From IMG/VR virus record IMGVR_UViG_2534681978_000011, positions 1-5,627 of that record: a DNA stretch of 5,627 bases; one strand, given 5' to 3'. The notes below the pieces were generated by a model. The model was not told the origin of the DNA and did no database searches. It saw nothing but the letters and a program-made list of their open reading frames with translations. This document shows, piece after piece, positions 1-5,627 of this stretch. Position 1 is the first letter of the stretch. Each line of letters starts with the position of its first letter. Source of the DNA: a virus (lineage: Duplodnaviria; Heunggongvirae; Uroviricota; Caudoviricetes). The position numbers and the translations under genes are program-made.

Positions 1-23
1 TGCTGGTCAGCTATCAAGTACAG

Positions 24-131
24 TCATAGTCCTACGTACTTGAGCCTACGGAGTCCCTGAGACTGCCAGCGTTCAATCGTCCGCGGGTCCACGTTGAAAA
101 TTTCGGCAAGCCTCTTTTTATTAACCTTCAT
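24..131 (-). pseudogene. nohA: Small terminase subunit (Nu1/NohA-type), N-terminal fragment only; frame closes after 35 codons
   Basis: Minus-strand ATG at 131-129 gives [27 protein letters not shown], matching the N-terminus of NohA/NohB-type small terminases as I recall them (lambda Nu1 begins MEVNKKQLADIF). After about codon 27 the translation (RRLKYVGL, stop at 26-24) no longer resembles terminase. It sits directly downstream of the cos site, as in lambda. Confidence 0.5.
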
Positions 132-149
132 GAAAACAACCCATTATCA

Positions 150-380
150 AATACAAAGGCCCCGACATGAAAACGCCAGAAAAAGGCATTTTCGGACACT
201 TTCATGTCGGACCTTTACGGATGCAATATTAAAAAAAACAAAAAGTTATATTCGAGAAGTACCGACACGATTTTCCCTGAAAAATTTTCATAAATAGTGA
301 AAAACCGCGAGGTCGCCGCCCCGTAACCTGTCGGATCGCCGGAAAGGACCCACCAAAAATGATAATGATTGTCAAATACG
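150..380 (-). other. cos packaging site: cosB R-element inverted repeat (163-173 / 200-210), A/T-rich IHF-like tract (about 228-250), cosN cohesive-end sequence (310-321), cosQ-proximal segment (about 322-376)
   Basis: Minus strand reads ACGGGGCGGCGACCTCGCGGTTTTTCACTATTTATGAAAATTTTTC, near-identical to the lambda left end GGGCGGCGACCTCGCGGGTTTTCGCTATTTATGAAAATTTTCC. The upstream segment GGTCCTTTCCGGCGATCCGACAGGTTACG matches the lambda right end. A perfect 11-bp inverted repeat CCGACATGAAA / TTTCATGTCGG sits between cosN and the terminase ATG, like the lambda R2/R1 elements. Confidence 0.75.
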
Positions 381-1696: not shown

Positions 1697-1723
1697 CAAT
1701 AAAAAGCCCCGCGAATGCGAGGC
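1697..1723 (-). terminator. Candidate rho-independent terminator or RNA hairpin between the spanin region and the 95-aa gene
   Basis: Minus-strand RNA: 7-bp stem GCCUCGC / GCGGGGC (one G-U), loop AUUC, followed by UUUUUAUU. Confidence 0.4.
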
Positions 1724-1758
1724 TAAATCCTGGTGTTTGTGATGAACTGGCTCTTATC

Positions 1759-1911
1759 TCAACGCAGCCCCTTACCGCGCGCCAGATGCTCAACTTCAAG
1801 CATCAGCAATGAGATGTTTAATCTGGATTCACTCCAGAAGTGATCACCACCCTGTCTACAGAGCCAGATGTGAAGGATGATAAGTAAAATTATCGCTATC
1901 ATCGAAGGCAT
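1759..1911 (-). CDS. Candidate small membrane protein, 50 aa (low confidence; may just be the out-of-frame tail of the frameshifted Rz region)
   Basis: ATG at 1911-1909 with AGGA 5 nt upstream. Product MPSMIAIILLIILHIWLCRQGG... has one hydrophobic helix-like segment. It overlaps the reconstructed Rz stop. Confidence 0.2.
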   Translation of the reverse strand: MPSMIAIILLIILHIWLCRQGGDHFWSESRLNISLLMLEVEHLARGKGLR

Positions 1912-2341
1912 TGCGTCCTGATGTATTCCTGAAGCGTTCTCAAACTGCGCGGTTATCCTGTCGATTCCACTTCGGAGACGGTAATAATTGAGTTCAGCAT
2001 CTGCTGTAAGTCTTGGGCTTTCTCCATCGCCCATGCTGCTGGCGTCCGGTCCGTTAGACTTTGCACAGGTGGCGGCGAACTTGCAGGCGCTTACGACCAG
2101 CAGAAACATCAGCACGGAGACTTTCGATAGTCGCATTAGCATCAGCAAGCTCCTTTGTATATCTGGCATCGAGTTCTGCTACGTCACGTTGACGCTTCTG
2201 CATGTCAGCGATGATGGATGTGGCTTTATCTCGCTGCTCTTTGTAGGCGATGGCGTTATCACGGTAATGATTAACAGCCCATAACAGGCAGACGATGATG
2301 CAGATAACCAGAGCGGAGATAATCGCGGTGACTCTGCTCAT
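1899..2341 (-). pseudogene. Rz: Rz inner-membrane spanin (i-spanin), disrupted by two +1 frameshifts in the sequence as given
   Basis: N-terminal 87 aa (frame of the ATG at 2341, [19 protein letters not shown]...AGRKRLQ) closely match lambda Rz, then stop at 2056-2054. The middle segment (ASSMGDGESPRLTADAELNYYRLRSGIDRITAQ, matching lambda ASGVDNAASPRLADTAERDYFTLRERLITMQ) is in the next frame. The C-terminus (LRTLQEYIRTQCLR-stop, matching lambda TQKYINEQCR-stop) is in the third frame, ending at 1901-1899. Removing one nt near 2081-2082 and one near 1942-1944 restores a 146-aa Rz. Confidence 0.75.
1953..2142 (-). pseudogene. Rz1: Rz1 outer-membrane lipoprotein spanin (o-spanin), embedded in Rz, disrupted by the first frameshift
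   Basis: ATG at 2142 with SD AAAGGAG. Signal peptide plus lipobox [20 protein letters not shown] (lambda: MLKLKMMLCVMMLPLVVVGC). The Pro-rich mature part ([19 protein letters not shown]...NSIITVSEVESTG, stop 1955-1953) is in the adjacent frame. The same 1-nt correction near 2081-2082 rejoins both Rz and Rz1. Confidence 0.7.
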
Positions 2342-2814
2342 ACCTCAATCTCTCTGACCGTTCCGCCAGCCTCTTTGAATTTTGCAATCAGGCTGTCAGC
2401 CTTATGCTCGAACTGACCATAACCAGCGCCCGGCAGTGAAGCCCAGATATTGCTGCAACGGTCGATAGCCTGACGGATATCACCGCGATCAATCATCGGT
2501 AAAGCGCCACGCTCTTTAATCTGCTGCAATGCCACAGCGTCCTGGCTTTTGGGAGAGAAATCTTTCAGGCCAAGCTGCTTACGATAGGCATCCCACCAAC
2601 GGGAAAGAAGCTGGTAACGTCCGGCGGCTGTTGATTTGAGTTTGGGGTTTAGCGTGACAAGTTTGCGAGGGTGATCAGAGTAATCAGTGAATAGCTCTCC
2701 GCCTACAATGACGTCATAACCATGATTTCTGGTTTTCTGTCGTCCGTTATCAGTCCCCTCTGACCACGCCAGCATATCGAGGAACGCCTTACGTTGATTA
2801 TTGATTTCCACCAT
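2338..2814 (-). CDS. R: Endolysin R (lambda-type lytic transglycosylase), 158 aa
   Basis: Protein [61 protein letters not shown]... is essentially identical to lambda R as recalled. ATGA overlap with the Rz start. Overlaps the S 3' end as in lambda. Confidence 0.95.
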
Positions 2815-3121
2815 CTTCTACTCCGGCTTTTTTAGCAGCGACGCGTTTGATAAGCGAACCAATCGAGTCAGTGCCGATGTAGCCGATGAACACGCTCGTT
2901 ATATAAGCGAGATTGCTACTTAGTCCGGCGAAGTCGAGAAGGTCACGAATGAACCAGGCGATAATGGCGCACATCGTTGCGTCGATTACTGTTTTTGTAA
3001 ACGCACCGCCATTATATCTGCCGCGAAGGTACGCCATTGCAAACGCAAGGATTGCCCCGATGCCTTGTTCCTTTGCCGCGAGAATGGCGGCTAACAGGTC
3101 ATGTTTTTCTGGCATCTTCAT
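2798..3121 (-). CDS. S: Holin S (lambda class I holin with dual-start motif MKMPEK: S107 antiholin / S105 holin), 107 aa
   Basis: Protein [64 protein letters not shown]... matches lambda S. The GGGGG SD and upstream leader match lambda. Confidence 0.95.
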
Positions 3122-3363
3122 GTCTTACCCCCAATAAGGGGATTTGCTCTATTTAATTAGGAATAAGGTCGATTACTGATAGAACAAATCCAGGCTACTG
3201 TGTTTAGTAATCAGATTTGTTCGTGACCGATATGCACGAGCAAAACGGCATGAGGTTGTTAGCGCAGCCTCTTGCCACCCGCTTTCACGAAGGTCATGTT
3301 TAGAAGGCCGCAGCGTAACTATCACTGATGAATTCAGGATAGCCAGTGGCTACGGCTCAGTTA
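3122..3363 (-). other. Lambda-type late leader upstream of S, including the S translational-control region
   Basis: Minus strand CTGAGCCGTAGCCACTGGCTATCCTGAATTCATCAGTGATAGTTACGCTGCGGCC...GATTACTAAACACAGTAGCCTGGATTTGTTCTATCAGTAATCGACCTTATTCCTAATTAAATAGAGCAAATCCCCTTATTGGGGGTAAGACATGAAGATG closely matches the lambda sequence preceding S as recalled. Confidence 0.7.
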
Positions 3364-3439
3364 TGGTGCTGGTTAACGGACTTGAACCGCTACCCATTCG
3401 CTTACAAGGCGACTGCTCTACCATTGGAGCTAAACCAGC
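3364..3439 (-). tRNA. tRNA-Thr (anticodon UGU), 76 nt including encoded CCA
   Basis: Manual cloverleaf on the minus strand: acceptor GCTGGTT/AACCAGC (7 bp perfect), D-arm GCTC-CAATGGTA-GAGC, anticodon loop CTTGTAA, T-arm AGCGG-TTCAAGT-CCGTT, discriminator A, CCA. Confidence 0.75.
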
Positions 3440-3444
3440 ATGTT

Positions 3445-3519
3445 TGGCGGGACAGCGTGGACTCGAACCACGATAAGAAGGTTAACAGCCTTCCGTAATG
3501 ACCTTTATACGACTGACCC
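3445..3519 (-). tRNA. tRNA-Asn-like (anticodon GUU), 75 nt including encoded CCA
   Basis: Manual cloverleaf on the minus strand: acceptor GGGTCAG/CTGTCCC (6 of 7 pairs, one U-U), D-loop AAAGGTCA, anticodon stem GAAGG/CCTTC with loop CTGTTAA (matches the E. coli tRNA-Asn loop), T-arm CGTGG-TTCGAGT-CCACG, discriminator G, CCA. Confidence 0.65.
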
Positions 3520-3564
3520 AAATAAAAAAGCCACCGTTGCAACTTAAGAGTCACTAACGGCAGC
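3520..3564 (-). terminator. Candidate tR'-like leader terminator immediately downstream of pR'
   Basis: Minus-strand RNA: 9-bp stem GCUGCCGUU / AACGGUGGC (two G-U pairs, so the hairpin is strand-specific), 17-nt loop, followed by UUUUUUAUUU. It ends 1 nt before the tRNA-Asn 5' end. Confidence 0.4.
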
Positions 3565-3574
3565 TTACCTGCTA

Positions 3575-3604
3575 ATTATGGCTAAATGGCTAATTGCATG
3601 TCAA
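3575..3604 (-). promoter_or_regulatory. Late promoter pR'-like sigma-70 promoter (-35 TTGACA, 18-nt spacer, -10 CATAAT), overlapping the last codons of Q
   Basis: Minus strand: TTGACA (3604-3599), 18-nt spacer, CATAAT (3580-3575). The -35 is a perfect consensus, the -10 is 5/6. Position immediately 3' of the Q gene is as expected for a lambdoid late promoter with its Q-utilisation site. Confidence 0.55.
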
Positions 3605-4100
3605 GGCTTTTAACAGCAACATGCTTAACTTTCTCAACACGTTTACGCATTTTGAAAGCATTTTGCATTGGCTGGTACAAAACAAATAACGACGCTTTCA
3701 GGATGTCGTCAATTTCGTTTCTACAGGTTGCCAGTGAAGGTTTTCTCCATCCCTCGCCACCACGTCCACACATCTTGCGTGGCTTTGCAGTCGCGTGATA
3801 GTAGGATGCAATTGCTCGCTTAGATGAACCATGAGCGTAGTAGCTGAGGAGGATGCCAAAGGCTTTCTTGTCAATGTACATGACGGAATCGACGACCTGA
3901 GAAATCAACATTCCATCATCATCATTACACATTGGCCTTGTCATAATTCTTCCCGGCTCTACGCTCTCCATGAACTTCGCTATTACGCTGCTCATGCGCT
4001 TTTCCAGACGACCTGAATAAACCCATGCGCCCCACAGTTCAAGCCAGCCATTCAGCCACTCATGCTGTTCTTTGGTGAGGTTTAGTTCTCTTATGCCCAT
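3582..4100 (-). CDS. Q: Late-gene antiterminator Q (phage-82 / DLP12 QuuD-like family, not lambda-Q type), 172 aa
   Basis: Position between ninI and the late promoter/lysis genes. Motifs [21 protein letters not shown] and [10 protein letters not shown] parallel QuuD-type Q proteins as recalled (LERWGAW, RPQCCDDDAMII, LLVDYYVVG). SD GGGAGAAGG before the ATG at 4100. Confidence 0.8.
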
Positions 4101-4762
4101 GCGCCTTCTCCCTGTACCTGAATCAATGTGAGGTTTCCGCAGAACACTGCTCCGGTATCGATATACATTTGGTTGGCAAATTTAAGTGGTTTCACTGCTG
4201 GCGTATGACCAAAGATGAACGTGTCCGCGCCTTTGATTTCTTTCACGATCCCGTCTTGTGAGTTGCTGATTCGTTCGCGGTTCCAGATTACCTGCTGATG
4301 ATCAACTGGCTTTCCAAACTCGTATTCGTCACAAGGATAATCGGCGTGGCAGATGACATATTTTTTACCTTCGCTCACCAGTTCGATGATTAACGGAAGT
4401 TCATCTGCTTTATGAGCAAGAGCTTTAGCCAGAATTTCTTTGTCGTAATCGAGATTAAAGAACCAGCCACCGCCATTAAGCATCCAGTGATTGACGTTTC
4501 CGCGCTCTGATAAGCCATCAATCATCATTTGCTCATGGTTTCCACGTACAGCTCGGAACCAGGGGAATGTGATTAATTCCAGACATTCGACGTTCTCTGT
4601 ACCGCGATCGACCAAATCGCCAACCGAGATAAGCAGGTCTTTTTTGGTGTCGAATCCTATCGTCTCCAGTTTTTTCATCAGGTTCGTGTAGCATCCGTGC
4701 AGATCGCCAACTACCCAAATATTTCGGTATTTGCTGCCATCAATTTTTTCGTAATAGCGCAT
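4091..4762 (-). CDS. ninI: Ser/Thr protein phosphatase (lambda PPase, NinI / ORF221 homologue), 223 aa
   Basis: From the ATG at 4762 (SD GGAGTGAAAGAG) the protein [29 protein letters not shown]...GNHE... matches lambda phosphatase with the metallophosphatase motifs GDLHG, GDLVDRG and GNHE. The 248-aa track ORF has a 25-codon upstream extension overlapping ninH. Confidence 0.9.
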
Positions 4763-4946
4763 CTCTTTCACTCCATCCGCGATGAACCATGAGAACGTCG
4801 TTGACGATGGCGTGCATTTTCCCGTCTTTATCATCAACGTATTTTCTGACCGTACCGCGACTACATTTCAGTCTGCGTGCTACTTCTGTCTGGTTTCCGT
4901 ATGCTTCAACGAGCATGTCTGGAATGGTTTTTACTGAGAACGTCAT
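4740..4946 (-). CDS. ninH: NinH, 68 aa
   Basis: [68 protein letters not shown] matches lambda NinH. ATGA start/stop overlap with ninG. Confidence 0.9.
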
Positions 4947-5554
4947 GCGGCCTCACTTCTGCTATTTCGCAGGTCTTTGAGTTTCTGCTGATACTCCGCC
5001 TTGATGGCCCTGCACTCTTCGACAGTCCAGCGATGGCGGTTATGGTTTGATTCGATTTCGTCTACTGCTTCCTGCCCGATGCGATTAATCAGTTCGACGC
5101 GATACGGAACGAGATTTCCGCTTTTGTGCTGGTTGCACACCACGCATTGCTTGTGAATATTGCGTTCATCAAATCGGAGTTGAGGTGCCGCAGCAGTTGT
5201 CCGGTAATGTCCGGCATCCCACTGAGCAGACGTGAGCGTTCCGCACGAGATACATGGTAAGTCGCGGTCTCTTTCTCTGATGAAGGCGTTTACGGCTTGT
5301 TGGGCTTGTTTAATCCAGTAACTGCGGGGCTTTAAGGCGAGTTTTCGAATCTTAAGTTTATCTTTCTGTTTCTGCTCCTCTCGTCGTCGTTTCTTCTCTG
5401 CTGCTTTTTCCGCTTTTTCGCGTTCTTTGCTTCGTCGTTCGAGTGCTATCTTGGTTCCACACTCTGGAGAGCACCACCACTGATTAGCGAATGCAGGGTG
5501 AAACCATTCCCGACATTCATCGTTTTTACATCGTCTTCGCGCTGGTTTAGCCAT
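4943..5554 (-). CDS. ninG: NinG (Rap recombination-associated structure-specific endonuclease), 203 aa
   Basis: [50 protein letters not shown]... matches lambda NinG across its length. SD GAGGAAG upstream of the ATG at 5554. Confidence 0.9.
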
Positions 5555-5627
5555 CGTCTTCTTCCTCGTACATTGAGCTATTCGGATCGCTCATCAGTTC
5601 TGCGCAGCAGTGCTCACACACGTGAAC
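5547..5627 (-). CDS. ninF: NinF, 3' partial (N-terminus lies beyond the window end)
   Basis: Minus-strand translation [26 protein letters not shown]-stop matches the lambda NinF C-terminus. Its stop overlaps the ninG start. Confidence 0.7.

Follow-up and report, generated by a model that had tools for sequence, protein, structure and literature searches.

Apparent truncation of a phage-21-type terminase small-subunit gene in a prophage record is probably a corrupted sequence end

The DNA analysed in this study is a stretch of 5,627 bases from IMG/VR record IMGVR_UViG_2534681978_000011, which we call the window. Read on the minus strand, it presents a lambdoid late-early region whose last gene is the start of a terminase small-subunit gene at position 131. 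The same strand carries, in order, genes for NinG (5554-4943), NinH (4946-4740), a Ser/Thr phosphatase (end at 4091), antiterminator Q (4100-3582), holin S (3121-2798) and endolysin R (2814-2338), followed by Rz/Rz1. Genes for tRNA-Asn (GTT; 3445-3519) and tRNA-Thr (TGT; 3364-3439), also on the minus strand, lie between antiterminator Q and holin S, a placement that is the same in related lambdoid prophages. Between the lysis cassette and cos are three small minus-strand ORFs (534-938, 1074-1364 and 1392-1799), none of which gives an above-threshold Pfam match. The member of this trio with 134 amino acids is a very frequent neighbour of Nu1-type terminase genes (1,911 collection blocks indexed). 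Apart from the small terminase gene and Rz/Rz1, all of the genes are intact in the window.

The cos region is of the phage 21 type. Its cosN cohesive-end bases (310-321) and the sites R3 (257-272), I1 (236-248) and R2 (200-215), all on the minus strand, are each 100% identical to their phage 21 counterparts, as is the entire segment 200..321 in which they lie. The exception is the cosB site R1 (154..172, minus strand), which carries two private single-base insertions in homopolymers at about positions 155 and 160. Both fall inside R1 as annotated for phage 21, and in the sense orientation they extend GGG to GGGG and TT to TTT. These two insertions are of the same type as the lesions elsewhere in the window. 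One 37-mer that includes them both was sought in IMG/VR, GTDB genomes and JGI metagenomes and occurs in none of the three.

Downstream of R1 on the minus strand lies the authentic 5' end of the terminase small-subunit gene (50..131), which comprises codons 1-27 plus one nucleotide and corresponds to the helix-turn-helix part of the protein. This segment is identical to nucleotides 1-82 of phage 21 gp1 and to the allele of the E. coli O104:H4 prophage. As written in the record, the apparent ORF (24..131, minus strand) has 35 amino acids, with the 27 genuine codons followed by eight spurious ones (RRLKYVGL) and by a stop as codon 36. The product passes Pfam model PF07471 (Phage_Nu1) with E=1.9e-8 and 34.5 bits against a cut-off of 30, and matches model positions 1-31 of 164. 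An earlier reading of this DNA, made from the sequence only, had described a Nu1/NohA-type N-terminus with about 27 homologous codons and a stop at codon 36, and the ORF at 131..24, the Pfam match and the identity to phage 21 gp1 all bear this description out.

In relatives, the full gene encodes 181-182 amino acids and spans PF07471 model positions 1-162. The ORF as written ends after 35 amino acids and so falls short of a full-length Phage_Nu1 member, which has about 181 residues including the C-terminal part. The C-terminal part of gpNu1 serves in self-association and in binding to the large subunit. Here, the rest of the small-subunit protein is missing because the window edge falls at gene nucleotide 131 and the bases leading up to that edge are corrupted. 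Like phage 21 gp1, lambda gpNu1 (PF07471) and the NohA/NohD-type copies, the gene is properly spaced with respect to a phage-21-type cos that lies upstream of it, with cosN, R3, I1, R2 and R1 at phage 21 spacing and the cos side as in the family, and its first 82 nucleotides are the same as in phage 21. It differs from phage 21 gp1 and lambda gpNu1 in that only 27 of about 182 codons are readable, the next 49 nucleotides are garbled, and the remaining gene lies beyond the window edge together with the large-subunit gene. The small-subunit gene is a typical representative of the phage 21 gp1/lambda Nu1 family in its normal place beside a phage-21-type cos, with nothing novel about it.

The identity to relatives breaks off exactly between positions 49 and 50. 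At the left end of the window, 4,027 E. coli genomes and 71 phage records gave BLAST matches, and every match begins at position 50; the first base leftward of the junction already differs. The boundary had earlier been placed at 52, three bases away from the actual break. In native gp1, the sequence that follows codon 27 is CCTTGCGCCTCCAAAGGTAGTAAGGGCATTGAATCTGTATTTGATACTGCCATGGCA. The minus-strand frames of positions 1-59 contain stop codons in all three registers, which upholds the earlier observation that the terminase is not continued in any frame at the left end. To the right of the break, the best of the 4,027 genomes matches at 649 of 651 positions, and the remainder corresponds exactly to the two insertions at 155 and 160.

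The gene is complete wherever relatives were inspected. A small-subunit gene of 181-182 amino acids was found in 10 of 10 contigs that have the neighbouring 134-amino-acid gene, each followed by large-terminase sequence, and a complete gene is likewise present in all 80 of the IMG/VR relatives kept (403 found). Every homologue inspected thus has a full-length gene with the normal continuation at the corresponding position. By the standard that the sequence-only reading had itself set for a refutation, this finding counts against a truncated gene.

Related prophage loci cover all bases of the window except positions 1-49, as judged by local BLAST. Searched by blastn (word size 11, E<=10), this stretch matched nothing among 5,426 complete E. 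coli genomes, 72,556 plasmids and 50,697 phage records. One exact 37-mer from it is absent from IMG/VR and GTDB species genomes, one 25-mer is absent from IMG/VR, and one 26-mer is absent from JGI metagenomes. An origin in an IS, a vector, the host or another phage was rejected on the grounds that blastn found nothing in the E. coli, plasmid and phage sets and that none of these exact 25- to 37-mers occurs in the contig collections scanned for it. The stretch is not a shuffle of the native bases, given that its mono- and dinucleotide counts differ from theirs. Nor does it appear to be a direct or inverted copy from elsewhere in the window or a related prophage, of the sort expected from a foldback or chimeric read, since the best scores on both strands gave P=0.35-0.99 against shuffles.

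Although these searches returned nothing, positions 1..49 (minus strand) can be aligned with the part of gp1 that should occupy this place. In a gapped alignment anchored at the junction, with native gp1 nucleotides 83-138 as the partner, 40 of the 49 bases keep the native order. They account for 40 of 59 columns (column identity about 68%), and the other columns hold 6 substitutions, 10 missing bases and 3 extra bases. The score of this alignment was equalled by none of 20,000 shuffles (P<5e-5) and by 4 of 20,000 real 49-mers taken from related loci (0.02%, 2e-4). When the stretch is aligned locally with the 70 bases of native sequence on the left side of the junction, it also outscores shuffles and random phage segments in each of four scoring schemes, with P values ranging from <5e-5 to 1e-2. 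Each half of the stretch is significant alone when it is divided at a point picked after viewing the alignment, with P<=5e-5 for positions 1-23 and P of about 0.006-0.012 for positions 24-49.

These alignments identify positions 1-49 as the native continuation of the gene in heavily corrupted form, with no junction to other DNA. The error density is about one per three bases, mostly small indels, and the divergence is about 32%. Because the stretch is a noisy copy of gp1 itself, it leaves no place for a deletion or insertion junction. A defective prophage joined to unrelated DNA is accordingly not what was found: the bases align to the continuation of the gene, and the IS, plasmid, host and phage searches gave no match to them. 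The statement in the sequence-only reading that the first ~50 nucleotides lack phage-like features therefore stands as far as BLAST and k-mer matches are concerned, and fails on the gapped alignment, in which a degraded gp1 continuation can be recognised. The stretch also has the marks of an artefact at a sequence end, namely a terminal place, an abrupt drop in identity, retention of the homologous register and a richness in indels.

The same data bear on whether positions 1-49 might be unrelated non-native DNA, such as an adapter, a vector, an assembly chimera or an IS/host junction, with a likeness to gp1 that arose by chance. We regard this as very unlikely. The stretch does sit at the extreme edge of the sequence, its base composition is near uniform and it has no database match, all of which speaks for such an origin. 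However, the degree to which it resembles the homologous stretch is far from random, and the resemblance involves the correct register and allele, and it finds no match in E. coli genomes or in plasmids, a set that would include many vector backbones and IS elements. It is not known to resemble any of the common Illumina, Nextera, ONT or PacBio adapters.

The choice of allele is also informative. The 49-mer was compared with 29 distinct full-length Nu1-family alleles, which comprised the phage 21/O104 type, the lambda type, alleles of other prophages and 22 distinct ones from IMG/VR. Its highest-scoring local match falls at gene nucleotides 98-133. This is the homologous position, and the allele is the same phage-21-type allele as in the flank. 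Lambda-type alleles give a lower score for the 49-mer, at a non-homologous place. A divergent Nu1 allele was rejected as the source of the stretch, as none of the 29 distinct alleles fits better than the flanking one.

Lambdoid mosaics typically show sharp boundaries at which identity changes between 99% and about 70%, and this window has such boundaries in other places. It could be argued on this basis that the drop in identity at 49|50 is one more mosaic boundary, formed by recombination with a divergent and possibly dead member of the Nu1 family. We consider this the least probable of the readings weighed here. The closure of all three frames in positions 1-59 leaves no functional allele, the phage-21-type flanking allele is unbeaten in the comparison described above, and a conserved remnant should be detectable by BLAST or k-mer matching in the 5,426 E. 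coli genomes or the contig collections, where none was.

Additional private differences occur in the interior of the window. At 1745, a single A is inserted between genes; this insertion is found neither in either parental-type relative nor in two IMG/VR contigs that have the same surrounding 80 nucleotides. Four more private single-base insertions, at 2043/44, 2051, 2056 and 2078, frameshift Rz/Rz1 (minus strand) and shorten the Rz ORF to 95 amino acids, compared with 145 amino acids in strain STEC299. Over window positions 1960-2140, the closest match among 1,926 E. coli genomes is identical at 177 of 177 bases, and the four inserted bases are the only differences. For this reason, the Rz/Rz1 lesions look like errors and not like decay, and their error signature is that of the left end.

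The interior private indels are all insertions (7/7), and private differences are nearly all indels, the only candidate substitution being at 1882, where the window is unlike both comparators that span it. Five of the seven insertions duplicate an adjacent base against a chance expectation of about 44%, an excess that is not significant and that permits no platform-specific inference. None of the lesions (the insertions at 155/160 and in Rz/Rz1, and the stretch 1-49) was found in any other genome or contig searched. Likewise, the aberrant products of 35, 95, 135 and 136 amino acids were never called on any contig of the public gene-call collection.

In a real decaying prophage, substitutions build up along with indels, and lesions are usually common to close strains. 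Neither sign of inherited decay is apparent here. Positions 50-1942 of the window are 99.5% identical to the E. coli O104:H4 prophage, and over the 1,733 nucleotides of positions 50-1782 there are no substitutions at all and three single-base insertions (155, 160 and 1745); the lesions are shared by no genome or contig. The proposal that the truncated terminase and the spanin frameshifts belong to a decaying prophage is thus at odds with flanks that are free of substitutions and with spanin lesions that consist of four private, unshared one-nucleotide insertions.

The affected sites are functionally related, in that they involve the small terminase gene, the R1 binding site and the spanins, and frameshifted prophage genes are common in real genomes, as exemplified by the Rha pseudogene in STEC299. 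On these grounds the scrambled gp1 patch, the Rz/Rz1 frameshifts and the changes in cosB R1 might be taken as a genuine biological lesion of a packaging- and lysis-defective, decaying prophage. We judge this to be unlikely. Neutral decay cannot produce an indel-rich divergence of about 32% within 49 nucleotides beside 1,733 that are free of substitutions, the interior private differences are all +1 insertions, and no related genome or contig has any of the lesions. Furthermore, the remaining genes are intact, and outside the lysis cassette the identity of the segments to relatives is at least 99.5%. A localised, indel-rich mutational burst in the prophage lineage, for example through error-prone repair at a DNA break near cos, is highly improbable; had one occurred, it would have inactivated the small terminase, the R1 site and the spanins and spared every adjacent base.

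We therefore favour, as the probable explanation, a corrupted sequence end with scattered indel errors elsewhere, which would be technical in origin and would involve no biological truncation. Under this explanation, the sequence would end 131 nucleotides into an ordinary phage-21-type gp1 (Nu1 family) gene that no foreign DNA interrupts. The outermost 49 bases would be a low-fidelity rendering of gp1, whose noise yields eight false codons and a false stop. The cause may be the end of a read or contig that was left uncorrected or had low coverage, or another corruption of the record, and the same technical cause could have given rise to the isolated one-nucleotide insertions at 155, 160, 1745 and 2043-2078. 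Forty-nine bases with about 32% indel-rich divergence abut 1,733 substitution-free bases and all lesions are private, a pattern that is the signature of errors in the record. Among the options listed in the sequence-only reading (a truncated prophage, a mosaic or assembly boundary, or a non-native edge), a technical boundary at the end of the sequence is thus favoured, and a deletion or insertion junction is not. It is well recognised that indel errors in long-read-based assemblies can produce false stops and frameshifts as artefacts (PMC6807382).

Two observations run counter to the artefact explanation. Only the left edge of the window is affected, whereas the right end is clean, with 100% identity over 5200-5627. 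In addition, the left end is biased toward missing bases (10, versus 3 extra), whereas the interior has insertions only, a difference that is not obviously predicted by one simple error process. Neither the clean right end nor the differing bias rescues the biological reading, and a technical cause, as opposed to a biological one, is most likely for positions 1-49 and for the isolated insertions.

The pattern resembles that of end errors in draft or long-read assemblies, which show the same abrupt collapse of identity confined to the end, with the register kept, many indels, few substitutions, false stops and frameshifts, and no sharing with other records. It departs from such cases in the insertion-only interior, the bias toward missing bases at the affected end and the perfect opposite end. 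The likeness to truncated terminase genes in lambdoid prophages that are cryptic or defective is superficial and consists of an N-terminal fragment with a premature stop. In contrast to those genes, there is no junction with unrelated DNA here, the lesion is unshared by relatives and the flanks carry no substitutions.

An annotation made at face value would describe the window as a cryptic prophage defective in packaging and lysis, and would bring the products of 35 and 95 amino acids into protein databases as pseudogene fragments. The truncation is best classed as not real, and no new biology is involved. The practical value of the analysis is that the record can be flagged as error-bearing and should not be counted among examples of prophage decay.

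Blemishes aside, the evidence indicates that the window joins an ordinary cos/terminase region of the phage 21 type to a Q-lysis cassette of the lambda type. It is a mosaic in which positions 50 to ~1782 are of the O104:H4-prophage type, ~1783-2626 carry a different Rz/R allele, and 2627-5627 are of the EEC_W5 type with one substitution; the joins, which may reflect either natural recombination or assembly chimerism, lie at about 1745-1783 and about 2627. Strain PSJ-07 is 97.8% identical to the window over positions 1701-5627, and strain EEC_W5 is 99.0% identical over positions 1906-5627. No complete E. coli genome covers at least 80% of the window. A simple assembly chimera of both prophages in an O104:H4-like strain is unsupported, as identity to the second prophage of NCCP15648 reaches only 96.4% over positions 1736-5627. 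Two IMG/VR contigs have the crossover region at 1718-1798, and they match the window in parts only, at 88-96% identity.
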